A stretch of 64,000 nt of DNA from an uncultured Gammaproteobacteria bacterium (lineage in GTDB: Bacteria; Patescibacteriota; Patescibacteriia; UBA1558; 2-01-FULL-52-15). A program made the position numbers and the translations under genes. Shown here one piece after another: positions 11,608 to 47,260 of the stretch. The notes under the pieces are model-generated. The model saw only the letters and a program-made list of their open reading frames with translations. It had not been told where the DNA came from and searched no databases. The stretch is taken from NCBI GenBank assembly GCA_964540995.1, contig CAZIOU010000001.1, positions 6,742 through 70,741 on the forward strand, in the 5' to 3' direction. Numbering within the stretch: the first letter of the stretch is position 1; every line of letters begins with the position of its first letter.

Positions 11608-11692
11608 GGGAGCTATCCGCGATCCGGACTCCGAGTTCCGGATACCGATTTCCGAGCACCAAGTGACGAGCTCCGAGTACCGGCTATATCCA
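11608..11692. repeat. GC-rich imperfectly palindromic intergenic element (family copy 1)
   Basis: ccggactccgagttccggataccgatttccgagcaccaagtgacgagctccgagtacc. Near-identical to the reverse complement of the copy at 18998-19114. Confidence 0.7.
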
Positions 11693-12115
11693 CGGCAAGA
11701 AATACACCACTGAATAGGTCAACGCTATCCCAGCAACGGTCCCTACAATCACCTGCGCCGGTGTATGACCCAAACGCTCTGTCAGCACCGGATATTTATA
11801 TTCTTCAGCGTCTGGTAACTCTTTGACTAAGCGGTTAATCATGCGAGCGTGCACTCCGAGCTGACGGCGGAAACCACTGGCGTCACGGATGATCACGATG
11901 AAGAGGACAAAAGCTACGGCCAGCGCAGCATCACCTAATCCTTGATCAAGGTAGAGGAGTGTGACTAATGAAGAGGCCAAGGCAGAATGAGCCGAAGGCA
12001 TGCCACCGTATTCATTCAAATGTTCCCAAGAGAAATTACCACGGAAGAACTCCAGCAGCAGTTTGGCTAGCTGGACGACGACCATGATCCCGAAAGGTAA
12101 TAGTAATAGACGCAT
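11684..12115 (-). CDS. divergent PAP2-family (DUF212/PF02681-like) membrane phosphatase
   Basis: GGMPSAHSA motif, characteristic of the divergent PAP2 / acid phosphatase-vanadium haloperoxidase-related family; 143-aa membrane protein. Confidence 0.55.
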   Translation of the reverse strand: MRLLLLPFGIMVVVQLAKLLLEFFRGNFSWEHLNEYGGMPSAHSALASSLVTLLYLDQGLGDAALAVAFVLFIVIIRDASGFRRQLGVHARMINRLVKELPDAEEYKYPVLTERLGHTPAQVIVGTVAGIALTYSVVYFLPWI

Positions 12116-12165
12116 AGGTTAAGGTTAGGTATAATTGGTAAGCCTGTTAATTATAACATATTTAC

Positions 12166-12921
12166 ATGAATTCATTTTTTCAATATGCGATTCTAGGCAT
12201 AGTTCAGGGTATAACTGAATGGTTGCCTATATCGAGTGATGGACATCTGGTCTTGGCCCATGCTTGGCTGGGAGTGCCGACCAATCTGGCTTTCGACGTT
12301 TTCTTGCATCTGGGAAGTCTAATTGTTATTTTGATTTATTTCCGTACTGATATTGTGCGTCTGATACGAGCTTTGGGTCGGCCGAGTGAAGTGGCTGATC
12401 GCAATCTCATCGGACGTATTATCGTGGCTACCTTTTTCACCGTTGCGATCGCACTCCTGATCAATCCTTATATGGAGCAACTGCAGACGGTACGCGTAGC
12501 AGCTATATTCTTTATCGTTACCGGTATATTCGTCGGTATGCACAAATTTATCCGCGCTAAGGCTAGCTCCCTGACCTGGGGCAAAACTATTTTCCTCGGT
12601 CTGGCGCAAGGACTGGCGGTATTACCTGGGTTGTCACGGAGCGGCTCCATGCTGGGCTGGGGACTGGCCTTGGGTCTGAAGAAAGAAGAAGCCTTTCGTT
12701 TTACTTTCCTAGCAGCTATCCCGGCTATTGCGGGCGCTTTTTTATTTGAGATACGTCACTTACAAATTCAACCTATTTATTGGGTAGGATTTATTGTCAC
12801 GATTATCGTTGGTTATCTATCGTTGATGGCTCTGGAATTGGTGTTGAAACGTGATCGCCTGTGGATATTCTCCTTGTACACAATAATTTTGGGCGTTGTG
12901 TTGCTATGCTTCGCGCGATAA
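12166..12921 (+). CDS. uppP: undecaprenyl-diphosphate phosphatase
   Basis: GITEWLPISSDGHL motif, polytopic, 251 aa. Confidence 0.9.
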   Translation: MNSFFQYAILGIVQGITEWLPISSDGHLVLAHAWLGVPTNLAFDVFLHLGSLIVILIYFRTDIVRLIRALGRPSEVADRNLIGRIIVATFFTVAIALLINPYMEQLQTVRVAAIFFIVTGIFVGMHKFIRAKASSLTWGKTIFLGLAQGLAVLPGLSRSGSMLGWGLALGLKKEEAFRFTFLAAIPAIAGAFLFEIRHLQIQPIYWVGFIVTIIVGYLSLMALELVLKRDRLWIFSLYTIILGVVLLCFAR

Positions 12922-13913
12922 AAACATTGGCGATCGTCATATTGCTTCTGCTGATAGCAGGAGTGATTTGGTTTGGTTGGGAGTTAGTACGTCCGGCCGC
13001 TTCACCAGCACGAGATATTGGCTTCACGGTCGAGTCAGGTCAGGGAGTGAATCTCATTAGTGCCAATTTACGACGAGCAGGACTTATTCACAGTTCATTC
13101 GTTTTTGAGACCTATATCTGGGCTATCAAGTCGGAGAACAAAGTGATTGCTGGCCGCTATAAGCTATCGAGTGGTATGAATATTCCGCAAGTCACTGCTG
13201 CTCTGATCCGTGGTAGTGTGGCGCAGAATGACAAAGTAACTTTTATCGAAGGTTGGAATCGTAATGATAATGCTGATTATCTGCAGCGTCAGGGTTTCAG
13301 TAGTAAAGAGTATTTGCAACTGACCGCTTCGTCTGTCACCTGGCGCGATGATTATCCCTTGACGCAGGCGATCCCCGATAATGGTAGCTTGGAAGGATTT
13401 CTTTTCCCTGATACCTACGCAGTGACACAAGACACCAAGGTTACCAGTATTATTGATAAACAGTTACAAAATTTTGAATCCAAGCTGACGCCGACGATGA
13501 TCGAGGATATCAGGCATTCTGGTCACACGTTATTCCAAATAGTTACCATGGCTTCAATTTTGGAAAAGGAAGTACCCCAACACGCTGATAAGAAGATGAT
13601 CGCCGATATATTTTGGAAACGGATCAAAGCCAACATTGGTTTGCAGTCTGATGCCACGATTAATTTCATCACCGGTAAGGGCACCACACGTCCCAGCTTA
13701 AATGATCTCAAGATTGATTCACCGTATAATACCTATAAATACAAAGGATTGACCCCTGGGCCTATTAGTAATCCCGGTATTGAAAGTATCCAAGCGGCGC
13801 TATATCCCACAGCCAATCCTTACTACTACTTCCTGACTGATCCGGAGGGAGGAGTGCATTATGCCAAGGATTTGGAAGGGCATAAGCAGAATCGGGCGAA
13901 GTATCTTGAATAA
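12906..13913 (+). CDS. mltG: endolytic murein transglycosylase MltG (YceG-like)
   Basis: N-terminal TM, then a YceG core: LQSDATINFITGKG, SPYNTYKYKGLTPGPISNPG. The tabulated ORF begins at 12861 and overlaps uppP; the Met at 12906 is the more likely start. Confidence 0.8.
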   Translation: MLRAIKTLAIVILLLLIAGVIWFGWELVRPAASPARDIGFTVESGQGVNLISANLRRAGLIHSSFVFETYIWAIKSENKVIAGRYKLSSGMNIPQVTAALIRGSVAQNDKVTFIEGWNRNDNADYLQRQGFSSKEYLQLTASSVTWRDDYPLTQAIPDNGSLEGFLFPDTYAVTQDTKVTSIIDKQLQNFESKLTPTMIEDIRHSGHTLFQIVTMASILEKEVPQHADKKMIADIFWKRIKANIGLQSDATINFITGKGTTRPSLNDLKIDSPYNTYKYKGLTPGPISNPGIESIQAALYPTANPYYYFLTDPEGGVHYAKDLEGHKQNRAKYLE

Positions 13914-14085
13914 GGGTGCTCGGGGCTCGCCTGCCCGACTCGACGCGTCTTCGCGGTCGGGCGGGCGACTCGGTACTCTCGGCCAGAGGCCGATCGGCCT
14001 CTGGCCGAGTTATTAGGGAAGAGGAGAGAGAGCGGGATCCGGAGTCCGGAACCCGGATAGCGGGTAGCGTCCGATTGAGTGTTTC
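13914..14085. repeat. GC-rich palindromic intergenic element (family copy 2; its reverse complement recurs at 23318-23436)
   Basis: ggtgctcggggctcgcctgcccgactcgacgcgtcttcgcggtcgggcgggcgactcggtactctcggccagaggccgatcggcctctggccgag...ggatccggagtccggaacccggatagcgggtagcg. Confidence 0.7.
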
Positions 14086-14121
14086 TGCGCGAGGCGGGGT
14101 CAAAAAATTAAAAAAAAGAAA

Positions 14122-14169
14122 GCGACCATCACGCTTCTTGTCCGCCTTTGGCGGAAGCGTGATGGCCGC
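14122..14169. terminator. bidirectional hairpin terminator between convergent mltG and the FHA gene
   Basis: gcgaccatcacgcttc...ccgcctttggcgg...gaagcgtgatggccgc, a nested hairpin after a poly-A/T tract. Confidence 0.55.
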
Positions 14170-14179
14170 TTGATATTTG

Positions 14180-14488
14180 TCAGGTCTGCACCTGCAACCA
14201 CAGTGTGTACGGCCCCATCTGGACGATGTCATTGGAATAGACGAAGCGGTGCTGGACTCGTTCATCGTTGACGATAACTTCCTCATCACCATTATCTGTG
14301 ACGATGGTGCAGAAACCACTTAGGCCGAAGCGAAACCTGGCTCTTTGGTGAGGAGTTAACTGCTCCAAGTAGATATCGGCCTGAGGAGCTGCACCTACAG
14401 TAACTGTGTCTTGAAGGAAGGTGTAGTCATTGAGCGGAACACCATCAAGCGATATACGAACAGTTAATTTCCTGATATCGTCAGTCAT
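14180..14488 (-). CDS. small FHA-domain protein
   Basis: VTVGAAPQADIYLEQLTPHQRARFRF...TDNGDEEVIVNDERV...NDIVQMGPYTLWL fits the FHA pattern (GR..CDI.L.D..VSR.HA.I...NGT.VNG..V....L..GD.I.IG). Confidence 0.45.
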   Translation of the reverse strand: MTDDIRKLTVRISLDGVPLNDYTFLQDTVTVGAAPQADIYLEQLTPHQRARFRFGLSGFCTIVTDNGDEEVIVNDERVQHRFVYSNDIVQMGPYTLWLQVQT

Positions 14489-14574
14489 GTGGCCTCCTTG
14501 GTAAGGTACGATCTGATTGATTCAGACTAGTATAACACTATAATTCTAGTAATTGTCTAAGTCAAGATCGTGAT

Positions 14575-15033
14575 TTGAGCTTCAATTTGATGGGTGCTAT
14601 AATTGCCACTATGATTGAGTTTAAGAAATATCAGGCACAGTCAGCTGATGGCAGTTCAATGACAGTTACTATTGCCAGTGGCCCAGTAATTATCGAGGAT
14701 GGCAAAGTACTACTCGATCAGCATGGTGACCCTGATATGTGGAAATTTCCAGGCGGCCGGATTCGTGATGATGAGTCGTTGCAACAGACAGCAATGCGTG
14801 AAGTCAAAGAAGAGCTGGGAATTGCTATTGAGATCATATCGGAACCATTTGTTATCACTATCCAGAAAGACCAAGAAACTATTATCTTAGCTCATTATTT
14901 GGCTAAACGCGTGGGAGATATTGTGCCCGGGCGAGATGTGGTTACATGGGCTTGGCATGATGTCGATAATTTGCCAGCTAATTGCGCTCCCAATATCCTG
15001 CCGGTGGTTACTCACTTTAGTAACGAAAAATAA
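14575..15033 (+). CDS. NUDIX hydrolase
   Basis: Nudix box GGRIRDDESLQQTAMREVKEELGI (GX5EX7REVXEEXGI). Confidence 0.75.
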   Translation: MSFNLMGAIIATMIEFKKYQAQSADGSSMTVTIASGPVIIEDGKVLLDQHGDPDMWKFPGGRIRDDESLQQTAMREVKEELGIAIEIISEPFVITIQKDQETIILAHYLAKRVGDIVPGRDVVTWAWHDVDNLPANCAPNILPVVTHFSNEK

Positions 15034-15042
15034 AAAAAGGAC

Positions 15043-15077
15043 CCCGCTATCGAGCATAGCTCAATAGCGGGGTTATT
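15043..15077 (+). terminator. Rho-independent terminator after the NUDIX gene
   Basis: ccccgctat-cgagcatagctca-atagcgggg followed by ttatt. Confidence 0.65.
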
Positions 15078-15970
15078 ATGGACAAACGTATTCCGAAGTC
15101 CGCATTCGGCATTTTCTACGGATGCCGCAAACCGTTGGGCATCGATGCCTTGAGATGTCTCACCGCCCTCGCGATGGCAGTGATTGTCATCTAGGGCAAG
15201 GCTTCGACCGCTCCAAAGGACAACATGCGTTACGGCGGGTGCTGCGAGATCATGGTGTGATCTCCTCCTTCAGCATCATCGTCCGAGTTAGTGCAAATGG
15301 GCCATGGGTGGCACGATTTTGCTCTATCCTGTTGTCATTCGCCCGGGATTTTAGGGAGTCCGGTTCTCCTATGTAGAATTTTTCAAAAGTGCGTAACCTC
15401 TGTCTTCCTTAGACCCTCGAGGTTGAGAAGGGTCGATTACTTTTTTGGCGGTCTTCATATGAAGCTAGAAGACCTTCATGAATCGCACCTCCCTTCGTTT
15501 GTTTCGGTTATGCAAGCCGTTGAGGCTTGCGGTGAGCTTTTCTCTCTTCCATGTGCTCATGCCCAGAGAGTGGAGGCATCGCGCTCCTCTACGCGCGGAT
15601 TTCGTCGGACACTCGAGACCTCCTTTCGGTGGATACCGTTGAGGCTAAATATCAGTCGTCAGTGTGCTAGCAGTAAGCTTTAGTGGCATGGACTCCTGTC
15701 TGAGCCGTGTCGGCTGGTCGGAAAAAGTCTGCACTACTATCGCTTTCTGCTACATGCTTCTAGCTATTCGCCTGAAGCAATATCGGCACCATATCAGATA
15801 TCCTATTTCTTGTCAAGGCTTAGATGACTATTATTGTCAATATTTGGCTAAAGTTAGCCCCTGTATGTCATTGCGAGTCTGTCTCAGACGAAGCAATCTG
15901 TTAATAATGACGGATTGCTTCATCGGATAGCTTCTCGCAAGCGAGTCTCCTACCCTTCGGGGTGGTGCTG

Positions 15971-15998
15971 TTGACTATTAACAACATTGTGGTATACT
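15971..15998 (+). promoter_or_regulatory. sigma70-type promoter for rplJL (TTGACT-16 nt-TGgTATACT, extended -10)
   Basis: ttgactattaacaacattgtggtatact, ~200 nt upstream of the rplJ start; leaves a ~190-nt leader. Confidence 0.5.
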
Positions 15999-16197
15999 CC
16001 TGATACAAATTGAATATTTGCCACAGACAGTGGGTGTCGAGCTCAGCTCGACTCAATATCCTACCGAGGCCAAATCCAGTGATTTCATTGGAAACCTTGC
16101 ATGTCTGCGGCTAAACCGCAGATTTATCGTTATCTGGGGATTGCTACAGAATACTGACTTCCCTAATAACTAATAACCAATAACTAACAATATTCGC

Positions 16198-16719
16198 ATG
16201 CCAAAAAGTAGATCCCAAAAACAAGAAGATTTACAGCTGATCCAGAGTAAGATTGCTGCCAGCCAAGGAGTGGTTTTTACTTCGGACGAAGGTTTGACTG
16301 TCAAAGAAAGCGAAGATTTGCGTAAGAAGTTACGTAGCGAGCAGGCTGGTTATCAAGGTGTCAAGAAGACCTTATTGATGAAAGCTCTGTCCGAAGCTAA
16401 GATCGACGCTGTATTAGAAACCAAAGGTACTGTGGCTGTAGCTTACTCCGAGAATGATGCTGTAGCACCGGCCCGTTTGGTCCGTGCCGCTTCCAAATCC
16501 AACGAAAAGTTAGTTATCCTCGGCGGTATCCTCGAAGGAAGCTTTATTTCCAAAGAAAAAGTTATTGCCTTAGCTGCTCTGCCAAGTCGTCTGGAACTTC
16601 TGGCCAAGACTGTCGGTACCTTGCAAGCGCCGATTTCCGGCTTCGTCAATGTATTGGCTGGTAATGTCCGAGGTTTGGTCAACGTGCTGAACGCAGTCAA
16701 AGACAAAAAGACAGCCTAA
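16198..16719 (+). CDS. rplJ: 50S ribosomal protein L10
   Basis: 173 aa, L10 family (…VVFTSDEGLTVKESEDLRKKLR…). Confidence 0.9.
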   Translation: MPKSRSQKQEDLQLIQSKIAASQGVVFTSDEGLTVKESEDLRKKLRSEQAGYQGVKKTLLMKALSEAKIDAVLETKGTVAVAYSENDAVAPARLVRAASKSNEKLVILGGILEGSFISKEKVIALAALPSRLELLAKTVGTLQAPISGFVNVLAGNVRGLVNVLNAVKDKKTA

Positions 16720-16788
16720 GTCAATTAGTCATTGAATCAATTAATCTATTAGTCAATTAATCAATTAGCCAATTAATCTATTAATATT

Positions 16789-17193
16789 ATGTCCGAAGAA
16801 AAAGTCATTGAAGTCCCGGCTAAGTTTCAATCCATCGTTAGCGAGATTGAAAAGATGTCGGTCCTAGACCTTTCTGAATTAGTGAAAGTTCTAGAAGAGA
16901 AGTTTGGTGTTTCAGCTGCTGCTCCTATGATGATGGGTGCTATGCCAGCTGCTGGTGGTGCTGCCGAAGCTGTTGAAGAGAAATCTTCATTCACGATCGA
17001 GTTAACCGCCGCTGGTGACAACAAGATCGGTGTCATCAAAGCCGTCCGTGAAGCTACTCAACTTGGTTTGAAGGAAGCTAAGGATTTGGTTGATGGTGCT
17101 CCTAAGGTTATCAAGGAAGGTGTCGCTAAGGCTGATGCCGAAGCCATGAAAAAGACTTTGGAAGCTGCCGGTGCTACCGTTACCCTCAAATAA
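16789..17193 (+). CDS. rplL: 50S ribosomal protein L7/L12
   Basis: Ala-rich hinge and a C-terminal [56 protein letters not shown]. Confidence 0.95.
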
Positions 17194-17216
17194 GGTTCTA
17201 GTTCAATTAATCAAAA

Positions 17217-17248
17217 TACTCTGCCAGTAATGGTGGAGTATTTTTTTG
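17217..17248 (+). terminator. Rho-independent terminator after rplL
   Basis: tactctgccagtaatggtggagta + ttttttt. Confidence 0.7.
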
Positions 17249-17357
17249 TTTGTAGTAAATAGAGAGGCTTTTTCTAGACAGTTGACAGTTATATAGAAAT
17301 ATAGTATAAGAAAAAAGCTTTTTGTACCTAGGTCGTTCCCGAACGAGGAGGTTTGGC

Positions 17358-17699
17358 ATGCACTTTCAGATTTTTTGTATCATGGTAAGTGGGGCGGCAC
17401 TCGATGATAGCGTTCGGAGCTTTCTGTTCTGGCAGGGGCGGAAATTGCTTTTGAGCGGAGATCGTCGACTTACTTTCAAGCATCCCAAATGTGAAGGCGA
17501 GATTCGTTCGGATTACACCCCCGCTTGCATGGGAGCAGTCAGTGGTTTGGTTCTACAGGCAAGTGTCGACTGTGCTAACGGTGTCTCCACTAAGGTGGAA
17601 TACCTCATCAGGGAGCGCGACATCGAAGATCTGGATGAAAGTCGGGGAGGTTACTGGCTTTCATTGAATCAGCAACCTGACAATCCGGAATTTAACTAG
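17358..17699 (+). CDS. hypothetical protein (GC-rich, likely acquired)
   Basis: ATG 7 nt after gaggagg. Followed by the hairpin terminator gccctcgaaac..gtttcgggggc + T-run (17711-17750). The tabulated ORF starts earlier, at 17322. Confidence 0.4.
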   Translation: MHFQIFCIMVSGAALDDSVRSFLFWQGRKLLLSGDRRLTFKHPKCEGEIRSDYTPACMGAVSGLVLQASVDCANGVSTKVEYLIRERDIEDLDESRGGYWLSLNQQPDNPEFN

Positions 17700-18039
17700 T
17701 TGAGCATTGAGCCCTCGAAACATAGTTTCGGGGGCTTTCATTATTTTTTGTTATTGACATTTATCGCCCATCATGATTTAATACTTTTCTCGTTCTTTGG
17801 AACTTGATGACCCATTCATCATACAGTTTGAGCGATCTAACCGATCGCACCTGGCCACGAGGTTCGTGGTAACTTTTGCTACAGGGCGGATATGTCAGCA
17901 TTCAAGGAAGGACACGAAGCAGTAACCCTGATCTACAGTGGTGGTCTGCCTCACGAAGAGGAGTTCGCCACAGTAACCGTTCCTGCGAATCACCACTCGC
18001 AGGAAAACCCTCAACCCGAATTGACGGAGGGACAGGACG

Positions 18040-18390
18040 TTGACTGAAGCCGCTTGGCAGAAATTGCTCAAGGACATCACACCTGCGTGGTCTGTCAATG
18101 ACGCGCCTGCACATCAAGTCAACCTCGAAGCCGCCTTCTCTGCGTTGACGCGTCGCGAACAGCAGGTCGTTCTGCACTGGTATCTCCACTTTTCCATGAG
18201 TGGGCAGCGGGACGATCGTCAGATCAACAAGGCAATTGTGCCGCTTCTTCTGACGCCCATGGATCATCGTGATCCGATCGTGATCAATGAACGTCAGGTC
18301 CACGCTTACCGCATGAAGGCGCTGGCCAAGCTCAAACGGCCGGATGTCCAGCGCGTCTTGCGTCGGCAGCCCGACACAGTCGCGGCCTGA
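18040..18390 (+). CDS. small sigma-70 region-4-like HTH protein (TTG start)
   Basis: LTRREQQVVLHWY...RQVHAYRMKALAKLKR resembles the sigma70_r4 helix-turn-helix. RBS ggaggg 8 nt upstream. An overlapping 50-aa upstream ORF (17892-18044) may be translationally coupled. GC ~58%. Confidence 0.4.
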   Translation: MTEAAWQKLLKDITPAWSVNDAPAHQVNLEAAFSALTRREQQVVLHWYLHFSMSGQRDDRQINKAIVPLLLTPMDHRDPIVINERQVHAYRMKALAKLKRPDVQRVLRRQPDTVAA

Positions 18391-18456
18391 CAAGGTTTCA
18401 CCTCCTCGGTATCTACGGGTACCGGGGAGTTTTATTTTTGTGTTACAATTAACTAT

Positions 18457-18996
18457 ATGTTTCTCACTGTGCATGCTACCTTCGGAGCGCTCGTCGCTAC
18501 CCAGACTCCAGGATTAGGAATGGCCTTTGTTGGTGGTTTCCTATCACATTTTCTTCTCGATTTCATCCCTCATGGAGATGAGAAAGTAGGGCAGTGGATC
18601 CTATCTCATAAGAAGAAGTTTATCCTCTTGGCTGGCGCTGATATAACTATTACGGCTTTTATGACGATTGTCATCGCTTCGATAGCCCTAAGCCGTGGTG
18701 ATAACGTGATGAATATACTTTTTGGTATGTTTGGTGCGGTGTTGCCGGACTTTTTGTCTATGGCCTTTCCAGAATTACACCAATTATTCCGTCGCAATAT
18801 TATTATCGACAGCTCATATAAGTTATTACGAGCTTTATCAGTGGCGCAGCTGGTAGCAGTTATCAACGGAATCCATCACCGCATTCACGGTTTCTTCTTG
18901 CGTCGCTATGGTTTCAAATTTTCATTACAAAACGGCTTGCTGTTGCAATCCGTATTCTTGGGGGTGGTGATGTATGTGTTGTTAGGCAGATTGTAG
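18457..18996 (+). CDS. membrane protein, possibly YdjM/DUF457-like membrane-bound metal-dependent hydrolase
   Basis: Polytopic membrane protein; a GGFLSHFLLDFIPHGDEK His/Asp cluster near the N-terminus, as in DUF457. Confidence 0.4.
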   Translation: MFLTVHATFGALVATQTPGLGMAFVGGFLSHFLLDFIPHGDEKVGQWILSHKKKFILLAGADITITAFMTIVIASIALSRGDNVMNILFGMFGAVLPDFLSMAFPELHQLFRRNIIIDSSYKLLRALSVAQLVAVINGIHHRIHGFFLRRYGFKFSLQNGLLLQSVFLGVVMYVLLGRL

Positions 18997-18997
18997 C

Positions 18998-19114
18998 AGC
19001 GGTGCTCGGGGCTCGTCACTTGGTGCTCGGAAGTCGGTGTCCGGATTCCGGGTAGCGGATCCCTGACCCCTCTTTCTTCTCCTCCCAAGTACCTAGTAAC
19101 GAGTTCCGAGTACC
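18998..19114. repeat. GC-rich palindromic intergenic element (family copy 3)
   Basis: ggtgctcggggctcgtcacttggtgctcggaagtcggtgtccggattccgggtagcggatccc...gagttccgagtacc. Confidence 0.7.
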
Positions 19115-21210
19115 TATCTTTTTATTGCCAACTGATACACTTGTGACCCGTTGAGTAAGTAGACGATCTTTTCTTCGCTATCAATGGCGAAGCTTTTCAA
19201 ATTATCAAATTTAGGTGAGGTGAATTGGTCTTTGATATTGCCATTCTTATCCATGATGGCGACGCGTTTATTGGCTGGGTCAAGAATATAGAGCAAATCC
19301 GAATTCTTAGTCGTCATGATCTGGCTGCCAGCACCGAAGGTGGGGAGAGGACGTTGATAGTCGAAGGGCTGTCTCTGGCCTTTGAATAGCTTCACAATAG
19401 TACCTTGATCATCGATCAGCCAGATATTGCCATCGATAGTGATGCTTTGGGTCTTGGCAACCAGCGATTGATCTTGTAGCCAGACTGTTCCGTTACCAAA
19501 TTTACTGCCACTGGTGTCACCACTATTTTTGTAAATAGCACCGCTGATGTGATCGACAACATAGAGATTATCGCCATAGAGCAGTGCTTGATCAATGGCT
19601 TGCATACCGGCATTCCACGTAATAGTAGAAGGAGCAACAGTGGCGCCATTGATAGTCTGGATTTGTCGGTCATTGAGTAATACGAGTGTGCCGTTGCTGG
19701 TATTGAAGAGATAGCCGGTGGTTAGCGGTTGAGTCAGGATTTGTTTGGCCGGTTCGTCAAGTTTGTAGACACCTTGAGCTCCAGAGACATAAGCAGCGCT
19801 ACCGATAAGGGCGAGATGCTTAAATTCTTGGTTGAGACTGGTCAGATCGCGATAGAGTAGTGGTGACTCGACCACATTGATATGGCGTACTTCATTGAGT
19901 TGTCGACCGATCTTCTCGCGTAAATCATTGAGTTGTTTCTGTTGATTACCATCAGCCGGTGACAATTGGTTTAATTTGGTAATCATATCGACGAGGATGC
20001 TTTCGGCTTTCTTGTCGTCTTTGTAGACACGACTGGAGTCTACATCGGATTGCATGGTTCCTAGCTCGGCCAACGTCTCACTGTAGGCTCGGTATTGTTT
20101 GTTAACCTGTAGATCTTGGCCGCGATAGATAATGACATTGAGGATTATCAAGAGGAATATGAAGCAGGCGGTGATCAGCCAACGATGGGTCCAATGTTTC
20201 TCCTTGAAGCTACTATGGAGTGTATCGACGTGAGATTCGAGGCGATTCCATTGGCGATGACTCGCTTCGTTACGATAGCTAGGTTTGGTAGCGAAGTGGA
20301 AGGATTGGATAGCAGTACGAAACACTCCCACGAAGAAGGCGCCAACAAGTTGGAGATAGATCCAAGCATGGACGAAGAAGAAACGGAGTGCCCAACCCAT
20401 ACCTTGGAGTACGGAGTTGGAGATTGGTACTCGGTCCGGACGCCTTGCAGGGATGCGTTGAGTCGGACGATTGGCTTGTTTAGCAGCCGGATTAGTGTTT
20501 CGTGCTGCTACTCGCTGCGTCGTGGCGATGCGCGGGGCCTCTGGTAAGGATTCTTCCTCTTGTCCCTTGAGTACGACCGCTCCGAAGCTGACGAAGCGAG
20601 GTACTTGCTCAAGTAGAAGCTCGAATTTTTCAATTGCTTCAGTAGTAGAGCCAGAAGCGACTATTTGACGTATTTTGATCTCCGAAACATAGTCAGTCAG
20701 CGATGGGGTAGTGAAGAGTAACGTGTCGTCTTCATCCAGATCACCGCTGGTGCAGCTGGAGAAAAGTTTCAAAGGATTTATAACTTTACTGGGTGGGGAG
20801 ACCAAGGTGAAGGCATTGTCATGGAGGATCCAAGCAGCCATCTGGCCGAGGTGTGCGAAGTGTGTCTCACGATCAGCAATGATCGCCACCATGAGATTGA
20901 GCTGTTCGAGCCAACGAGTGTTTTTCTTGGGAGTGATGTGCGGCAACAAGTAGTTGAGTTGCTCTAGAATTTTCTCCAAAGACTGTTCGGGTGGGAGGTT
21001 GGTCGTTTTCAGAAACCACTCATTACATTCTTGACTGATGGCGTCGACTAGATATGACTGATCGAAGCGTGGCAAACGGGCGAAATCAGCAATAACCACC
21101 AAGCGACGTAAGTGGCGGGGGTCGCTCTGAAAGATGCTAATATCACAATGACTCCGGCTGGCGCTGGGGTCATGGATATATAATTTGGCAAGAGAAATGG
21201 GTACAGTCAT
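19114..21210 (-). CDS. large hypothetical membrane protein with a C-terminal beta-propeller-like repeat domain
   Basis: 698 aa. Central TM helices (WALRFFFVHAWIYLQLVGAFFVGVF; WLITACFIFLLIILNVIIY). C-terminal repeats of the type LYVVDHISGAIYK, IWLIDDQGTIVKL, LYILDPANKRVAIMD, IVYLLNGSQVYQL. Confidence 0.55.
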   Translation of the reverse strand: MTVPISLAKLYIHDPSASRSHCDISIFQSDPRHLRRLVVIADFARLPRFDQSYLVDAISQECNEWFLKTTNLPPEQSLEKILEQLNYLLPHITPKKNTRWLEQLNLMVAIIADRETHFAHLGQMAAWILHDNAFTLVSPPSKVINPLKLFSSCTSGDLDEDDTLLFTTPSLTDYVSEIKIRQIVASGSTTEAIEKFELLLEQVPRFVSFGAVVLKGQEEESLPEAPRIATTQRVAARNTNPAAKQANRPTQRIPARRPDRVPISNSVLQGMGWALRFFFVHAWIYLQLVGAFFVGVFRTAIQSFHFATKPSYRNEASHRQWNRLESHVDTLHSSFKEKHWTHRWLITACFIFLLIILNVIIYRGQDLQVNKQYRAYSETLAELGTMQSDVDSSRVYKDDKKAESILVDMITKLNQLSPADGNQQKQLNDLREKIGRQLNEVRHINVVESPLLYRDLTSLNQEFKHLALIGSAAYVSGAQGVYKLDEPAKQILTQPLTTGYLFNTSNGTLVLLNDRQIQTINGATVAPSTITWNAGMQAIDQALLYGDNLYVVDHISGAIYKNSGDTSGSKFGNGTVWLQDQSLVAKTQSITIDGNIWLIDDQGTIVKLFKGQRQPFDYQRPLPTFGAGSQIMTTKNSDLLYILDPANKRVAIMDKNGNIKDQFTSPKFDNLKSFAIDSEEKIVYLLNGSQVYQLAIKR

Positions 21211-21296
21211 AACGACACTATTTTAGCATTTTTTTCCTTTTTGGCCTAGTAATTCCTAGTAGCCAAGAGCAGAAAGTGGTACAATAATCCCGTTCT

Positions 21297-21854: not shown

Positions 21855-21855
21855 G

Positions 21856-22263: not shown

Positions 22264-22284
22264 AGAAGGTAAAATAAGTTTTTT

Positions 22285-24593: not shown

Positions 24594-24618
24594 GTACTCA
24601 AACCGAAGGAGCTAAGTC

Positions 24619-37322: not shown

Positions 37323-37328
37323 TGTAAA

Positions 37329-39157: not shown

Positions 39158-39245
39158 CCCAATCTCTGGTATTGCTACTTTGTTGTTAATTCTCTCCAGC
39201 CTTCTGCCTACGCATGGTGCGCAGTCAGCATTTCTGGAGGGAATT

Positions 39246-39644
39246 GTGAAACGCTTTGCTCTTCTGTCCTTTAGCTTACTCTGCCTAGCTTTCACGGCTC
39301 TGGTCGGATTCCACATCGGACAAGGAACTGCCACGGCCCAGAGCGGACTGATGTCGACCTCGGCAGTCGTGACCGTCGGCTTTCAAAAAGCTCTCCTGGT
39401 CAATGGCGAAATCTGGAAACTCGAAATCGGCGCAGGCTGGTTAAATACCGGCCAGTCTTCACCAGTCCCGGTCACAGACGTTGTCTTTCTCTTCGAAACA
39501 GATGGCTCCGACCCGGCCATTATCGATCGAAGTGGAAACGGATGGGGTTATCGCAATAATCACTGGACAAACTACGGACCGCCACCCGTTGCTGTGACAA
39601 CACAGCCGACCACCTGGAGCGCCATCAAGGCGCAGCACAGGTAA
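39246..39644 (+). CDS. GC-rich secreted hypothetical protein (GTG start)
   Basis: RBS ggaggg; signal peptide KRFALLSFSLLCLAFTALVG; perfect hairpin terminator cggccagcttcgc gat gcgaagctggccg at 39652-39680. Confidence 0.4.
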   Translation: MKRFALLSFSLLCLAFTALVGFHIGQGTATAQSGLMSTSAVVTVGFQKALLVNGEIWKLEIGAGWLNTGQSSPVPVTDVVFLFETDGSDPAIIDRSGNGWGYRNNHWTNYGPPPVAVTTQPTTWSAIKAQHR

Positions 39645-39822
39645 AACCAAGCGGCCAGCTTCGCGATGCGAAGCTGGCCGTTGAACATTTTAAATACAGT
39701 TAGGTAGGATGCTCTTGAAGAGCTTAAGAAGATTCATCTCGAGGAAACCGTGAAGATACTGGCTGAGAATCAGGCGCTGACTATTGCAAGGAATTTGTTT
39801 GCTCTGGTTAAAGCTCTTGGCT

Positions 39823-40818
39823 CTAGGCGCGACCCTGACGCCTAGCGTCAGACCATGGCTTCTCATATTTCTCGTAATACTCTCTTTCAAGTAATCCGGG
39901 GTGGAGACTTCCATCAAGCATTTTCTGCATAACTTCTCTGTTACTACCATAAGCAAACTCAATAGCATGGGACGCAATCAGAATGTTGAACAACCTCACG
40001 ACCTTATCTTGCGCGGAAAATAGTGCCTCTCTCTTGATCTTCGTTGAACCCATCGGATATGTCAATTGAATTAGAATCTCTGGCGTGAGTGCGAAGTATT
40101 TATTTCTATCTAAAAAAGTTGGACCATAAAAAGTCTTTGGTGGCAGCCACCACTCCACGATTGGAGAGTCAGAAGTGATGAATTGCTCATTGCCCTTAGC
40201 AATATATATTTTCCATTTCATTCCATAGAACATATTCGCGAAGCCCGGACCACCAAACCCTAAGTGTGTGGTCATAAATTTGAGATGTTGCGCGTTACTG
40301 ACACGCAAATCCCAGTTATCACTTCTCATAAACTCTAAGAGGTCATCTTTTTCCTTCTCTGTCATGACTTTCCCGGTATCCTTCAGATATTTGTTAATGG
40401 TCTCACGATCAAACCAGTTAATCATAACTTTCGCTGCCTGCTTTTCATAAGATTGGATTTGCTCTCTCATGGCTGGTGAACGTAGCCACATCAAACTCAT
40501 AAAGACTGAAAGAATGTATTTGTCCGTGTCGTCTAAATATTGATAGTCAACAATCTTCTTAATGATTACTGGAAGTTCCTTGGCGATCGCATCCTCAAAT
40601 TGATTTAGCCAGGATTCAACTTGCTGTGACACCTCATCTGGCTCACCTGTTCTTCCGGCATAATAGTAGTGTTTATAACCAATGCCTGACGTCGGTTTCG
40701 GATTGCTTAGACGTTTATTCTTTAGGTCTAGCGGATGCAGCTTACCATCTTCATCAGTAAACCTTCTCAGATAGAACTGAGGCACATAATGTTGTTTTTT
40801 TGTTTCCGTGTCCGCCAT
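39823..40818 (-). CDS. DUF4238-family protein
   Basis: N-terminus KQHYVPQFYLRRF, typical of DUF4238; 331 aa. Confidence 0.55.
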   Translation of the reverse strand: MADTETKKQHYVPQFYLRRFTDEDGKLHPLDLKNKRLSNPKPTSGIGYKHYYYAGRTGEPDEVSQQVESWLNQFEDAIAKELPVIIKKIVDYQYLDDTDKYILSVFMSLMWLRSPAMREQIQSYEKQAAKVMINWFDRETINKYLKDTGKVMTEKEKDDLLEFMRSDNWDLRVSNAQHLKFMTTHLGFGGPGFANMFYGMKWKIYIAKGNEQFITSDSPIVEWWLPPKTFYGPTFLDRNKYFALTPEILIQLTYPMGSTKIKREALFSAQDKVVRLFNILIASHAIEFAYGSNREVMQKMLDGSLHPGLLEREYYEKYEKPWSDARRQGRA

Positions 40819-40961
40819 AGAGTCGTAATAGCAAGTTATTACGGCAGGGTCAACCTAATAGGTTGAGATCTCTATCGCCCTTTTTTGGTTATCCACACCT
40901 CCCCGTACACATTCTACTTTAACCCATCTAGACGGACATAAAAAAACAGCCTTTTCAGACT

Positions 40962-40990
40962 TGGCTCACCATTAGGGATTCGAACCCCTA
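40962..40990 (-). pseudogene. orphan tRNA 3' fragment (T-arm + acceptor 3' strand + CCA), possible integration-site remnant
   Basis: Reverse complement TTAGGGGTTCGAATCCCTAATGGTGAGCCA; no complementary 5' acceptor strand or D/anticodon arms could be found upstream. Confidence 0.35.
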
Positions 40991-41048
40991 ATTATGAATT
41001 GCGTATTCCCAATTACGCCTTACGCTTTACGTATTACGATCTATAAAC

Positions 41049-41123
41049 TGGTGACCCTACCGGGAATCGAACCCGGATTGCAAGGTTGAGAACCTTGTGT
41101 CCTAACCGTTAGACGATAAGGCC
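41049..41123 (-). tRNA. tRNA-Glu (anticodon CUC), CCA encoded
   Basis: Hand fold: acceptor GGCCUUA/UAGGGUC, D-stem GUCU/GGAC, anticodon stem CAAGG/CCUUG with loop UUCUCAA, T-arm CCGGG-UUCGAUU-CCCGG, A73, CCA. Confidence 0.85.
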
Positions 41124-41130: not shown

Positions 41131-41244
41131 CGGTGCTTGGTACTAGCTGCTTGGTGCTCGGAAATCGTTACCGGATCGTGAATACCGAATTCCTCTCTTC
41201 CCAGTCCCGAGTAACGAGTACCTAGTACCTAGTACCTAGTACCG
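41131..41244. repeat. GC-rich palindromic intergenic element (family copy 6), with (CCTAGTAC)x3 tandem and a TAACTAATAAC tail
   Basis: ggtgcttggtactagctgcttggtgctcggaaatcgttaccggatcg...cccgagtaacgagtacctagtacctagtacctagtacc. Confidence 0.65.
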
Positions 41245-41337
41245 AACTAACTAATAACAAATAACACTTTCTTCAATTCTTTTCAAGTCCCAAATAAAAC
41301 CCGCCTAAGTTGTTTAGGCGGGGATAGGTTCGGCTCG

Positions 41338-42698: not shown

Positions 42699-43388
42699 AT
42701 GTCTGAAATTATTAGCGTACCTCGACACATCGGCATCATCCCCGACGGTAATCGTCGCTGGGCCAAGGCCAAGGGCTTACCAAGCCTCAAAGGCCACGAG
42801 GCTGGCTTCAAAGTATTGCCATCAGTGGCTGAAGCGGCCTTTGATGCTGGAGTGGAGGTGTTCTCAGCTTGGGGCTTCTCGACTGAGAATTGGAATCGTA
42901 CTGCTGAAGAAGTGTCCTATCTGATGGATCTTTTTATTCATTACTTAGGTCAAGAAGCCAACGAATTGCATCAGAAAAATATCAAATTATTAGTGAGCGG
43001 TTCACGAGCAGAGTTGAGCGACAAGCTGGTGCAGGCTATCGAGCAGGCAGAGCAACTGACAGGTAATAATAGTAGAGGAGTGATCAACGTTTGTCTGAAT
43101 TATGGTGGTCGACAGGAATTGGTAGATGCGGTCAATGGATTAATCAAAGAAGGCAAGACGGCAGTTACGGCCGACGATCTTACACGCCATTTGTATCATC
43201 AATTACCTGACTTAGACCTGATTATCCGCACAGCAGGGGAGCGGCGGTTGTCTGGCTTCATGCCGTGGCAGGGAATCTACAGTGAACTGTATTTTAGCGA
43301 CAAGCTATGGCCAGATTTCTCACCTGATGACTTGCACGCGGCGCTGCAAGATTTCGCCAATCGTAAACGCACCTTTGGTGGAAATTGA
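42699..43388 (+). CDS. uppS: ditrans,polycis-undecaprenyl-diphosphate synthase
   Basis: IPRHIGIIPDGNRRWAKAKGL... cis-prenyltransferase signature; 229 aa. Confidence 0.9.
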   Translation: MSEIISVPRHIGIIPDGNRRWAKAKGLPSLKGHEAGFKVLPSVAEAAFDAGVEVFSAWGFSTENWNRTAEEVSYLMDLFIHYLGQEANELHQKNIKLLVSGSRAELSDKLVQAIEQAEQLTGNNSRGVINVCLNYGGRQELVDAVNGLIKEGKTAVTADDLTRHLYHQLPDLDLIIRTAGERRLSGFMPWQGIYSELYFSDKLWPDFSPDDLHAALQDFANRKRTFGGN

Positions 43389-43508
43389 ATTAGAACCAAG
43401 TATAAAGTAGAAAGTATAAGGTATAAAGTATGTGGCCTAAGGTAGGAACAGAACGTAACAATACATTATACATTCTACCTAATACCTAATACTTTTTAAT
43501 AATATTTT

Positions 43509-45486: not shown

Positions 45487-46562
45487 TGGCTAATTTCAAA
45501 CATTTTATCCGCCCCACATCAGAGAAACCACCATCATTGGTAAGTGTTACTATTGTTAGTGCTTTGGTTGGTTTGGCTACAGGAGCAGCTGGATTTAGCC
45601 TACTACGAGCGCTCTACCCCAGTGAAACCATCATTACAGGCACTACCGGTGATCTGAGTTCGCTCAAAGTTACTTTTGACGAACCTTTGACTGCTGTAGC
45701 AGCGCAGCTTGATGATCATATAGTACCTGTGTATAACCACATAGAAACCTCAACTACCAATTTATATACTGACCGTGATTACGTGGCTACTGCTTTGATT
45801 GTTACCTCCGATGGTTGGCTGATGGTACCGTCCACCGTGTCAGTACCGGCGCAACCAGATGTCATCGTTAATAACAAAGTCTATCGTGTCACCGAACAGC
45901 ATCTTGATACGGTGGCGCAAGTTCGTTTCTTGAAAATAGATGCCAATAATCTCTCACCGATTCGCTTCACCAAAGATGACGAAGTCAAGCAAGGTGCGCT
46001 CTTGGTCTATGAGCAGGCGCGGATTGCTGGCGGATCACTCTTTAACCGCTCATTAGTTCGGCAGATAGATACCATTGATATGACTAGTCGTATGACGCAG
46101 ATTCACGGTGCTAGCTTGGTGGATCAGACTATTGCTATCGATCAAAATGCTTCTGAGTCGGTTTTTTACTTTACAGCCGGAGGAGCGGTGGCAGGAGTCG
46201 GGCAGGGCGGACAGCTAGTCCCCGCCTACTATATTCGCACGGCTGTGGATAAGTTATTAGCCAAAACTTCCTATGTATCGTTAGGGATTTCCTATGTCGA
46301 TCTCTATCGTCTTCCCGGGCATCAGGATGACGAAGGTGTCTTGATTACTTCCGGTTTACGCGCTGCTATTATCCCAGGATCTCCCGCCGCCAAAGCCGGC
46401 CTCAAGCTCAATGATCATATCGTAGCAGTCGCTGGTACTCCGATCGGCTACACCAACAATAATAGCCTCGGCAAACTGATGCTGGGCTATAAGACTGGCG
46501 ACAGCGTTGTTCTTGATATTGTCCGTGACGGTAAGAAGCAGCAGGTGACAGTACAGTTCTAA
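45486..46562 (+). CDS. membrane-anchored protein with a C-terminal PDZ domain (HtrA-like but without an obvious Ser-protease GNSGG motif)
   Basis: N-terminal TM. C-terminal GVLITSGLRAAIIPGSPAAKAGLKLNDHIVAVAGTPI...GDSVVLDIVRDGKKQQVTVQF = PDZ. Confidence 0.55.
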   Translation: MANFKHFIRPTSEKPPSLVSVTIVSALVGLATGAAGFSLLRALYPSETIITGTTGDLSSLKVTFDEPLTAVAAQLDDHIVPVYNHIETSTTNLYTDRDYVATALIVTSDGWLMVPSTVSVPAQPDVIVNNKVYRVTEQHLDTVAQVRFLKIDANNLSPIRFTKDDEVKQGALLVYEQARIAGGSLFNRSLVRQIDTIDMTSRMTQIHGASLVDQTIAIDQNASESVFYFTAGGAVAGVGQGGQLVPAYYIRTAVDKLLAKTSYVSLGISYVDLYRLPGHQDDEGVLITSGLRAAIIPGSPAAKAGLKLNDHIVAVAGTPIGYTNNNSLGKLMLGYKTGDSVVLDIVRDGKKQQVTVQF

Positions 46563-46900
46563 TCAAGGTCATCGACGGGCGTATCGGGCAGAGGAATATA
46601 GTGAGGAGCCGCTAAGGGCTTCTTTTTGTTTGGTTGCTCGTTGATAACGGGAGGATGAGGGGAATACTTGGGATTAGAGATTTTCCACTTATCAACATAT
46701 TGACCCAAGCCTTGGCTCGCCAGAAGGTTACGGCGGCGCGTACTGACCTGACTCCACTTCACCAGACTATTGAAGTTGATCTTGTAACGTCCTTTGACGA
46801 TGATATAGCGAAGCTGACCAGCATAGATCGCTTGCCTTATAGTTTTGGTCGAAACACCAAATAATCTGGTAGCTTCAGAGATTGAGACTCGAATATCCAT
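46559..46900 (-). CDS. helix-turn-helix DNA-binding protein (excisionase/MerR-like HTH_17)
   Basis: SISEATRLFGVSTKTIRQAIYAGQLRY. Confidence 0.5.
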   Translation of the reverse strand: MDIRVSISEATRLFGVSTKTIRQAIYAGQLRYIIVKGRYKINFNSLVKWSQVSTRRRNLLASQGLGQYVDKWKISNPKYSPHPPVINEQPNKKKPLAAPHYIPLPDTPVDDLD

Positions 46901-47037
46901 GGGAGGTAGGTATTAGTTACTTGTTATCCGTTATTAGGGAAGATAAGATGATATCTCATTTTTATGTATTTCTACCCTAATAACAAATAACTAATTACAT
47001 TTAACTATTATAGTATACACTATTCTATACTTTAATG

Positions 47038-47260
47038 GGTGCTAGGGGCTCGTCACTCGGTACTCGGAAGAGGAGGGGAAGAAACTAGAAACTTGGAACT
47101 GGAAACTAGGAAGAGGGTATCCGCTACCCGCTATCCGGGCGGATTCCGGGTAGCGGACTCCGGACCCCTATTTCAAGTTCCTAATTTCTAGCTTTTAGGC
47201 CCTAGTCCCTACTTCCTACGTCCTAAGGCATACTGCCTTATCCCTAGTACCCAGCACCAT
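47038..47260. repeat. GC-rich palindromic intergenic element (family copy 7, longest)
   Basis: gggtgctaggggctcgtcactcggtactcggaag...gggtatccgctacccgctatccgggcggattccgggtagcggactccggacccc...ccctagtacccagcacc. Confidence 0.7.

Follow-up and report, generated by a model that had tools for sequence, protein, structure and literature searches.

Mosaic, imperfectly palindromic intergenic repeats on a seven-nucleotide lattice in a relative of Candidatus Komeilibacteria

Several kinds of short repeat are known from the spacers of bacterial genomes. Repetitive extragenic palindromic (REP) sequences, bacterial interspersed mosaic elements (BIMEs) and REP doublets forming hairpins (REPINs) are many-copy, extragenic, GC-rich imperfect palindromes (PMC3333891, PMC3116915, PMC2817692), in which the REP itself measures 20-40 nt and has a defined GTAG head. 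Short tandemly repeated repetitive (STRR) sequences and TAACTGA-type repeats are intergenic arrays of tandem 7-nt units. In Beggiatoaceae, the TAACTGA repeats are found upstream of start codons, and nearly all of the BOGUAY sets are direct repeats, with one inverted repeat in 170 sets (PMC4679880). Pneumococcal BOX elements and neisserial intergenic mosaic element (NIME)/Correia-type sequences are modular, with conserved ends, variable internal tandem units and predicted stem-loops; BOX elements are enriched between convergent genes, with about half of the insertions common to strains, and both BOX and RUP have terminal inverted repeats, target duplications and ends matching insertion sequences (IS), while the criteria for MITEs (miniature inverted-repeat transposable elements) include AT-richness relative to the genome (PMC3049150). 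The present analysis concerns a 64,000-nt stretch of contig CAZIOU010000001.1 (assembly GCA_964540995.1), referred to below as the window and numbered from its first letter, in which seven GC-rich elements, A to G, constitute a true dispersed, palindromic, intergenic repeat family. With a probability of roughly 0.62, the elements are read here as lineage-specific, non-coding, mosaic and imperfectly palindromic repeats on a 7-nt lattice, which would be the GC-rich version of heptamer arrays found in most spacers without promoter or leader function in a Komeilibacteria-like clade; the copying between loci that this entails is inferred from end states, as is the use made of the elements by the host.

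The window carries fpg, DUF212, uppP, mltG, mraZ, PGK and enolase genes, an ECF sigma factor with its DUF5667 partner, RHS and many open reading frames (ORFs) without Pfam assignment, and is syntenic with metagenome-assembled genomes (MAGs) labelled Candidatus Komeilibacteria, which belong to the Candidate Phyla Radiation (CPR, or Patescibacteria). Members of this radiation have small, streamlined genomes, in which mobile DNA is usually said to be scarce. The present genome nonetheless holds a palindromic family of modular build that is dispersed and clearly turns over between relatives, and no account of such repeats in CPR bacteria was found in the searchable literature, itself incomplete. 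For comparison, two contigs from aquatic metagenomes in ENA, L009 and L010, had 96% and 98% protein identity to the window, respectively; L001, L008 and L011 had 87-88%, the latter two being stretches of one 116.7-kb JGI contig; L005, L007 and L012, all from GCA_043801745.1, had 60-73%; and L004 had about 58%. The sequence inspected comprised the window and about 42 kb of the 88% relative (L008 and L011), giving about 106 kb in the two closest genomes.

In common with REP, BIME and REPIN sequences, the present elements are GC-rich, extragenic, imperfect palindromes in many copies, in which inverted halves with variable linkers form mosaics (C, E, F and G being the inverted doublets here). They also lack target-site duplications, include one-armed remnants beside the doublets, and vary in presence between strains while other copies are kept. 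The host roles ascribed to REP and BIME sequences, namely mRNA stabilisation, insulation and protein binding, are plausible for these elements too. In contrast to the short REP unit, however, the palindromes are 115-225 nt long and composed of degenerate 7-nt repeats, with arms that grade into AT-rich heptamer arrays and switch type in place; the host is a CPR bacterium, and no REP-associated tyrosine transposase (RAYT) was seen among the scanned window ORFs or in the Pfam lists of L008 and L011 (about 42 kb). As the arms are themselves heptamer arrays, no discrete REP unit of 20-40 nt can be delimited.

The likeness to STRR and TAACTGA-type repeats lies in the intergenic, tandem 7-nt units, in the mixing of related units within one array (TAATAAC and TAACTAA here resemble TAACTGA), and in the many arrays placed directly 5' of start codons, as seen here for the AT-rich arrays before SIMPL, L10 and mraZ. 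Unlike those repeats, the arrays of the window are typically inverted pairs that form long palindromes, they surround a conserved core (purine tract and CCGG-rich hairpin) that stands outside the heptamer arrays, and they belong to a dispersed family with a conserved order of units. The unit sequences of TAACTGA and STRR1-3 were not matched either, the units here being GAGTACC/GGTGCTC, TATCCGG-type and TAATAAC, and the known hosts are cyanobacteria, Beggiatoaceae and some Bacteroidetes rather than a Candidatus Komeilibacteria relative. Heptamer repeats of the STRR kind were reportedly described from cyanobacteria by Mazel et al. in 1990. Small dispersed repeats (SDRs) of Nostoc, reportedly described by Elhai et al. 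in 2008, are hairpin-like sequences of 21-27 nt that lie within heptamer arrays or hairpins; their borders are exact, they make no target duplication, and their presence varies between related genomes. By that description, two optional inserts of the present elements, m1 and m2, are similar in being nested, with exact borders, no duplication and presence/absence variation, but they are 36-37 nt rather than 21-27 nt long, and m1 occurs at one kind of junction.

The elements share with BOX a modular build in which end modules are conserved and internal tandem units vary in number, predicted stem-loops, an enrichment in spacers of convergent genes and a mix of shared and variable positions, but the internal units of BOX are 45 nt long, against 7 nt here. 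With respect to the features of MITEs, terminal inverted repeats were seen in three elements (C, F and G) and, decayed, in a fourth (E), but not in A, B and D; there was no target duplication, and GC-richness is the rule. GTAG-headed REPs of 20-40 nt with a RAYT, terminal repeats with target duplication, and the specific heptamer units, which define the respective families, were not established for the elements, and they were therefore not filed under any named family. They would appear to work most like BIME/REPIN mosaics and modular BOX elements, with a fabric like that of intergenic heptamer repeats. They are REP/BIME/BOX-like mosaic repeats with an STRR-like heptamer structure, and as such are of a general kind that is already known.

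Family, lattice and anatomy of the elements

An earlier note, made from the letters of this DNA, had listed seven copies with shared modules, several of them reverse complements of one another. All seven loci proved real and homologous, and the boundaries it gave held approximately, the start being moved for D (to about 23285, which brings in the purine tract) and for E (to about 25177). The shared modules occurred in the window far above expectation: GGTRCTCGG was observed 10 times against 0.45 expected, with nine of the 10 inside elements; CCGGATWCCGGGTAGCGGA at up to three mismatches was observed six times against 0 expected, always inside elements; and GGCCTCTGGCC at up to one mismatch was observed five times against 0.6. 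The reverse-complement pairs were likewise recovered, positions 13913-13978 (B) matching 23380-23445 (D) at 94% over 66 nt and 11616-11682 (A) matching 19000-19066 (C) at 81% over 67 nt. An nhmmer profile of the common core detected all seven loci and no eighth in the 64 kb; as the profile was built from the shared core, the seven matches are expected by construction, and the informative part is the absence of an eighth.

The elements are richer in GC than their surroundings (48-69%, compared to 45.3% for the window), all seven are located between ORFs, as had been claimed, and they give rise to spurious ORFs. The terminal inverted repeat GGTGCTCGG...CCGAGTACC, which had been attributed to the family in general, holds for three elements (C, F and G); E has a decayed version of it, and A, B and D have a single arm. 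Tested segments of B to G folded more stably than shuffled sequence (z from -2.8 to -6.6); the fold of A was not more stable than its shuffles (z = -1.4). Fold energy was about equal on both strands, which is expected for a palindrome at the DNA level. G-quadruplexes or triplexes might be imagined for the (GGN5)n arms and the purine tracts, but the hairpin would compete with such structures. The order of the heptamers is kept across the aligned copies, and the family is thus not merely GC-rich low-complexity sequence.

Every copy is laid out in degenerate 7-nt units, a lattice that the earlier note overlooked. Read in sevens, element C runs GGTGCTC GGGGCTC GTCACTT GGTGCTC GGAAGTC GGTGTCC GGATTCC GGGTAGC ... 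AAGTACC TAGTAAC GAGTTCC GAGTACC. With arrays called by Tandem Repeats Finder and a self-match scan, period 7 was the sole strong periodicity of the window (301 sliding windows had a self-match above 0.6; period 8 had 41 such windows, and the remaining periods in the range 3-12 had none), and all of the flagged period-7 arrays lay in spacers, bar one within the RHS ORF. Heptamer-array DNA makes up about 1.7 kb of the window and includes arrays that do not belong to the GC-rich family, such as an AT-rich dyad of TCGTTAT/AATAACT units at 5311-5469, between PGK and the SIMPL gene. Further AT-rich arrays are located at 10621-10740, 16139-16197, 25407-25475, 40980-41048, 43376-43508 and 46901-47010, several of the AT-rich arrays being themselves dyads. 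Since period 7 is also found in these AT-rich spacer arrays, the GC-rich family represents one form of a property that spacers of this genome have in general. As a qualitative observation, GC-type units (GAGTACC, GAGCACC, AAGTACC) and AT-type units (TAATAAC, AAATAAC) have a common xAxTAxC skeleton, and the TAGTAAC in the right arm of C is intermediate between the two types. Slippage-like runs were seen as (TAGTACC)x3 in F and as (CTCCTAA)x5 at 25430-25466, before mraZ.

Alignment in a common orientation yielded a grammar of outer arm, purine tract, CCGG-rich inner hairpin, pyrimidine tract and complementary outer arm. The units of the outer arm are GGTGCTC GGGGCTC [m1] GTCACTT GGTGCTC GGAAATC, with GAGTACC-type units in the opposite arm; the purine tract, like GGGAAGAGGAG, is found in six of the seven elements; and the inner hairpin, (G)GTATCCGCnATCCGGnnnCCGGATnGCGGATACC, contains CCGG-rich heptamers that can pair in several registers. 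An inverted G(G/A)TAGCGG in the inner module occurs nine times in the window against 2.6 expected, six of the nine being inside elements. Full imperfect palindromes of 112-223 nt are formed by C, E, F and G, and A, B and D are one-armed; the core of tract and hairpin was found in both orientations relative to the arms. The two arms match each other in different ways, F pairing GGTACTA with TAGTACC where C pairs GGGGCTC with GAGTTCC. Insert m1 is an optional 36-nt hairpin, CCGCCCGACCGCGAAGACGCGTCGAGTCGGGCAGGC, which is present in B (13929-13964, reverse orientation) and D (23394-23429). It was always at the same heptamer junction in the five copies compared, and its 27-nt cores are identical between copies at different loci. 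Insert m2 is an optional 37-nt sequence containing a perfect 32-nt palindrome, CTCGGCCAGAGGCCGATCGGCCTCTGGCCGAG, and is present in B (13979-14015), with a half copy in D.

Element A (11602-11683, minus strand) is one-armed and is located between the convergent fpg and DUF212 genes, touching both stop codons; it consists of a purine tract (11602-11613), an inner hairpin (11614-11647) and an arm of GAGCACC/GAGTACC-type units (11648-11683), with a profile E-value of 9.6e-22. Element B (13914-14075, plus strand), also one-armed, lies right after the mltG stop codon and comprises arm (13914-13928), reversed m1, arm (13965-13978), m2, purine tract (14016-14033) and inner hairpin (14034-14069). Both A and B abut stop codons at a distance of 0-3 nt in the window, as does a GC-family hairpin after the PGK stop codon in L001. 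Element C (19001-19114, plus strand; z = -5.6) is a full imperfect palindrome between a convergent 179-aa ORF (plus strand) and a 698-aa ORF (minus strand), with a left arm at 19001-19034, an inner hairpin at 19035-19063, a pyrimidine tract at 19064-19086 and a right arm at 19087-19114. Element D (23285-23445, minus strand; z = -6.6) is one-armed and stands upstream of a conserved kinase promoter, TTGACATAG; its parts are a purine tract (23290-23303), the half-m2 (23314-23338), the inner hairpin (23339-23372), and an arm (23373-23393 and 23430-23443) interrupted by m1.

Element E (25177-25288, plus strand; z = -3.0) is a palindrome with a decayed left arm, placed between an intrinsic terminator (25127-25159) and the mraZ promoter, in which the left arm spans 25177-25199, the inner hairpin 25200-25250 and the right arm 25257-25287. 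Element F (41132-41245, plus strand; z = -6.0), a full palindrome, occupies the space between the 5' end of tRNA-Glu(CTC) (41049-41123, minus strand) and the terminator of the upstream minus-strand gene; its left arm (41132-41165), inner hairpin (41166-41189) and pyrimidine tract (41190-41202) are followed by a right arm (41203-41243) that includes the (TAGTACC)x3 run and continues as AT-type units at 41245-41266. Element G (47038-47260, plus strand) is the longest palindrome at about 223 nt and separates the divergent HTH_17 and ECF-sigma genes, with a left arm (47037-47065), a purine tract (47066-47085), GGAAACT-type heptamers (47086-47115), an inner hairpin (47116-47161) and a right half (47162-47258).

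Matches to the core profile were obtained in the window and in L001, L008, L009, L010 and L011, and none in L002-L007 or L012; being limited to close relatives, they indicate that the GC-rich family is confined to this sub-clade. AT-rich heptamer arrays were also found in L003, L004, L005, L007 and L012. Scans of a metagenome collection with the m1 core and with the left-arm pattern GCTCGTCACTYGGTRCTCGGAA gave no match, although the JGI contig of the 88% relative exists, so that in this collection the family is either rare or has diverged. The m1 core had no match in viral contigs, and blastn of C and G had none in phage and plasmid sequences. Two matches to an 18-nt word of the inner hairpin in viral contigs were rejected as chance, both being in coding-like sequence with no heptamer context.

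Other hairpin modules and arrays of the same fabric were noted. Sequence resembling m2, GCGATCGGCCTGTGGCCGAG, is present in L012 on both sides of the HTH_17 gene (11111-11127 and 11532-11548), and a third GC-rich hairpin module, CCCGCTTCG...CGAGGCGAG, is found within heptamer arrays of L010 (3371-3423) and L011 (6325-6347) and in the C-position spacer of L007 (12311-12340). Three AT- or CU-rich arrays (5404-5447, 16145-16190 and 25430-25466) stop a few bases 5' of start codons lacking an evident Shine-Dalgarno sequence, namely the SIMPL ATG at 5451, the L10 ATG at 16198 (the array here lying between the L10 leader and the ATG) and the mraZ GTG at 25476. Such pre-start positions are kept among relatives while the units vary, with (CTCCTAA)x5 in the window, CTTACTC-type units in L007 and GC-type units before L10 in L008. 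The array inside the RHS ORF (ORF 4-2991; array 1561-1616) is in frame, consists of CAATAAT/TCAAxxx units, shares 75% identity with the intergenic array at 10623-10677 and is translated as a low-complexity linker, GQDSIINNQDSNNIQVPSFNNQ. Period-7 signals in the PGK genes of L004 and L005 were considered as coding insertions and ruled out; they correspond to a conserved peptide, KLEVRSKKLEEG, that is heptamer-like by accident.

Turnover and conservation at orthologous positions

Comparison between relatives, of the kind that the earlier note had suggested for strains, revealed gain, loss and replacement of elements and modules. At position A, m1 is lacking in the window and L009 and present in L001 and L008, where it is inserted exactly between ...AAGTGAC and GAGCTCC..., the placement being ambiguous by no more than 1 nt and free of duplication; in the more distant L007 the fpg and DUF212 genes overlap and leave no spacer. 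A four-genome alignment of position B showed arm, m1, arm, m2 and core in the window; L009 lacks exactly the 37-nt m2, L001 lacks m1 and two heptamers and is left with a short arm and core, and L008 has AT-rich heptamers where the window has a GC-rich arm. The distribution of m1 is reciprocal: at B it is found in the window and L009 and missing from L001, and at A it is found in L001 and L008 and missing from the window and L009. Within B, a 21-nt segment, GGAGTCCGGAACCCGGATAGC, flanked by GGGATCC and GGATCCC as 7-nt inverted repeats, is inverted between the window and L009 on one side and L001 and L008 on the other, each orientation being backed by two independent assemblies. The MAG contig CAZPQR010000017.1 (L001) stops 67 nt past mltG, within element B (L001 11054-11117); such repeats may thus fragment short-read assemblies of these genomes.

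At position C, L008 has the inner hairpin, the tract and TAATAAC-type units only, and L007 has unrelated sequence. Position D of L008 is occupied by an AT-rich dyad with a common central TTAATTGGC; among the more distant relatives, L007 has CCTAAxx units and L004 an AT-rich heptamer array just 5' of the kinase gene, and the promoter of that gene was recognised in the window, L008 and L007. At position E the left arm is conserved in L008 and the right arm is TAATAAC-type, compared to GAGTACC-type in the window; L007 is without GC-family sequence. The L011 spacer (88% relative) that is orthologous to position F lacks the element. Element G was found in L010 and L011; L012 is without it and has other heptamer dyads in its place. 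The PGK|SIMPL, iPGM|fpg and L10 5' untranslated region (UTR) spacers are of AT type in the window and contain GC-family hairpins in L001 and L008, the opposite of the pattern for the arms of C, D and E, which are GC-type in the window. The PGK|SIMPL hairpin of L001 and L008 is closely similar to the core of G, and the iPGM|fpg spacer of L007 is AT-type. No target-site duplication was found at junctions with and without m1 (A), m2 (B) or F, with at most 1 nt of ambiguity. The contigs at 98/96%, 88%, 60-73% and 58% protein identity form a natural time series of module gain and loss, loop inversion and AT-to-GC arm switching, which makes the origin and spread of REP-like and STRR-like repeats directly testable.

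Where copies are retained, they are well conserved. Element A and its L001 counterpart are identical at 74 of 78 positions (95%), against 81-87% for the genes and 58-69% for third codon positions. For G, 218 of 222 positions are identical in L010, and its core is identical to that of L011 at 182 of 197 (92.4%), with long identical runs; the three genes flanking G are 79-90% identical to those of L011, with third positions at 53-78%, and the excess conservation of the core had P=1.3e-6 against a benchmark identity of 0.80. Element B without m2 is identical to L009 at 140 of 145 positions (96.6%), with third positions of neighbouring genes at 78-80% for mltG and uppP and 91% for DUF212. The retained copies A, B and G thus change more slowly than the silent sites of neighbouring genes, which argues for constraint or homogenisation.

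Proposed mechanism and competing explanations

The earlier suggestion of mobile or recombinogenic elements of MITE/REP type stands as regards mobility or recombination and a REP-like mosaic, but not as regards MITEs, given the absence of target duplication, the GC-richness and the terminal inverted repeats in only four of the seven elements (E included). For the reading of the elements as mosaic repeats on a heptamer lattice, replication slippage in a 7-nt register would lengthen and shorten arrays and change the number of units, and template switching across hairpins would keep arms complementary, invert loops, and add or remove hairpin modules. Blocks may also be copied between loci, with the heptamers that these have in common serving as microhomology, or possibly through the action of an unlinked HUH-type enzyme, and such copying between arrays would produce a dispersed family with a conserved order of units and no MITE-style ends. 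At gene boundaries, the host would retain copies in the form of stable stem-loops or cruciforms that protect transcript ends or insulate, as described for REP and BIME sequences; given that retained copies evolve more slowly than synonymous sites, such use by the host is probable.

A number of observations weigh against this account. The evidence on the copying mechanism consists of end states, and no intermediate was seen. The differences at F and B are not plain insertions, in that the flanking bases differ as well, so that replacement and insertion cannot always be distinguished. In the G orthologs, one of 76 pairs showed a compensatory change, six a one-sided change and nine were broken, so that covariation at the RNA level was not demonstrated. 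The conservation of the elements could also stem from recombination between populations, or from generally conserved regulatory spacers, those around G being conserved in general. Finally, an unlinked RAYT or IS200-like enzyme, which also leaves no duplication, would be an improbable but genuine alternative source of the copies, the sequence inspected being the window and about 42 kb of the 88% relative.

It is possible, though on balance unlikely, that the elements are above all functional cis-elements selected at each site, for instance stem-loops that, within 3' UTRs or in the gaps separating transcription units, would act in mRNA stability, pausing or termination, or as cruciform or protein-binding insulators, with dispersal being secondary. 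Such roles have been reported for REP and BIME sequences (PMC3333891), and the conservation of orthologous copies above synonymous sites, the position of several elements within 0-3 nt of stop codons, and the persistence of some heptamer hairpin at a given position across relatives, whatever its sequence, would all be expected. However, the elements have no U-tract terminator signature: an intrinsic-terminator scan of 11000-26000 called none of the elements, no T-tract tail was present on any of the seven, and separate canonical terminators adjoin B (14119-14137, minus strand), E (the hairpin at 25127-25159 named above) and F (about 41295-41325). Their settings also vary, from convergent, tandem and divergent genes to a place upstream of a tRNA, their orientation with respect to neighbouring transcription is inconsistent, with F antisense to both neighbours, and L007 manages with overlapping genes and no spacer at position A.

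The main rival as to how copies arise is a REPIN/BIME-type system in which the elements are moved in trans by a single-copy RAYT or IS200/IS605-like enzyme, the hairpins would serve as single-stranded DNA substrates, and m1 and m2 would be nested insertions at a preferred junction; it holds this place because similar end states are expected of it and about 106 kb of the two closest genomes were inspected, but it is considered improbable. The inverted hairpin doublets, their intergenic location, the lack of target duplication and the mosaics fit the descriptions of REPINs and BIMEs (PMC3116915, PMC3333891), m1 is at a constant heptamer junction, and the inverted G(G/A)TAGCGG recalls, as a lead, the conserved GTAG head of REPs. 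A search for the cognate transposase that the earlier note had raised found no transposase or RAYT among the roughly 46 of 82 window ORFs of at least 90 aa that were scanned, where the only candidate was a serine recombinase of an apparent island, and no Y1 transposase domain was seen in those ORFs or in the Pfam lists of L007, L008, L011 and L012. Moreover, the elements are far longer and more heterogeneous than REPs of 20-40 nt, their arms are heptamer arrays that merge into AT-type arrays, and the arm type switches at several loci, which would not be predicted for an enzyme with one defined substrate.

A more far-reaching and doubtful reading would take the heptad-periodic hairpin cassettes as selected marks of gene boundaries that are read by a protein, with the cassettes and the 36-37 nt modules spread by an undescribed mechanism, either template switching between arrays that needs no transposase or a new enzyme specific for hairpins. 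It would explain both the change of sequence type at kept palindrome positions and the slow evolution of retained copies and, if true, would describe a system distinct from REP/RAYT, MITEs and STRRs.

That the elements are genes for small structured RNAs, as the earlier note had also considered, is very unlikely. The folds are stable, and G and A are highly conserved between relatives, but Rfam returned no family over the elements at the gathering score and no relevant match at E<=1, the only matches at the gathering score in the scan being tRNA-Glu and the L10 leader. A strand comparison of fold energies and G:U counts gave no consistent bias, no framing by promoter and terminator was seen, substitutions in the G orthologs break as many pairs as they keep, and the observed indels and inversions would wreck a specific tertiary fold. 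Slightly less credible still are independent local expansions of heptamers that resemble one another through mutational bias, with no copying between loci. Heptamer slippage is clearly active in the (TAGTACC)x3 and (CTCCTAA)x5 runs, and heptanucleotide repeats are reported to be the most abundant class of simple repeat in many bacteria (PMC4679880, citing earlier surveys), but this explanation is contradicted by the ordered homology between copies, in which up to 10 different units follow in the same succession across 60-70 nt, at an identity of 75-94%, and equally by the identical 27-nt m1 cores at separate loci and the hairpins at different positions in L001 and L008 that are nearly the same as the core of G. 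Least credible of all are classical MITEs or the ends of a composite transposon: C, F and G do have terminal inverted repeats, and D and E are indeed oppositely oriented around the somewhat GC-richer kinase cassette (23534-25113), as the earlier note had pointed out, but no junction has a target-site duplication, the elements are not AT-rich, A, B and D are single-armed, and a composite transposon carrying the cassette is ruled out, and the bracketing is a coincidence around an ancestral cassette, since the cassette is at the same syntenic position in L007, L004 and L008, none of which has these GC-rich arms.

Other features of the region

A 680-nt stretch without an ORF of at least 90 aa (49229-49907, plus strand) lies between the DUF5667 gene and a 1257-aa ORF, and is kept in all three relatives that cover it (L010 5674-6361, L011 13806-14490 and L012 13813-14429). 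Its columns average 88% identity, and long blocks are invariant even in comparison with L012, in which the neighbouring PDZ protein is only 60% identical. RNAalifold predicted 229 pairs, of which 23 had two-sided compensatory changes, and no Rfam match was obtained at E<=1; the region is a candidate large structured non-coding RNA or leader, seemingly undescribed. Terminator-like hairpins at 25127-25159 (plus strand), 15041-15073 (minus strand) and 49376-49394 (plus strand) share a GAGCTGAGCTC/GAGCTATGCTC apex, for example CCCCCGTCATCGAGCTGAGCTCGATGACGGGGG, which recurs in this conserved non-coding region and in L008.

The block from about 32000 to 41050 is low in GC (36-41%), adjoins tRNA-Glu(CTC) and looks like an integrated island. 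Its cargo includes an SMODS/AGS_C nucleotidyltransferase (similar to that of a cyclic-oligonucleotide-based anti-phage signalling system, CBASS), an AIPR abortive-infection protein, the large serine recombinase (37329-38987) and a DUF4238 protein, and a partial duplicate of the tRNA 3' end lies at about 40975-40996. The island is absent in L012. In L011 the cargo differs; a related recombinase is present there, as are several repeats of tRNA fragments, with TTACGxx heptamers after each of them. A second low-GC stretch (38.9% for 22001-23000) holds a 314-aa ORF (22285-23229) just 5' of D, for which there was a weak partial match in L004 and no counterpart in L008, where tsaB is followed by a spacer and the kinase gene; this ORF is probably a lineage-specific insertion.

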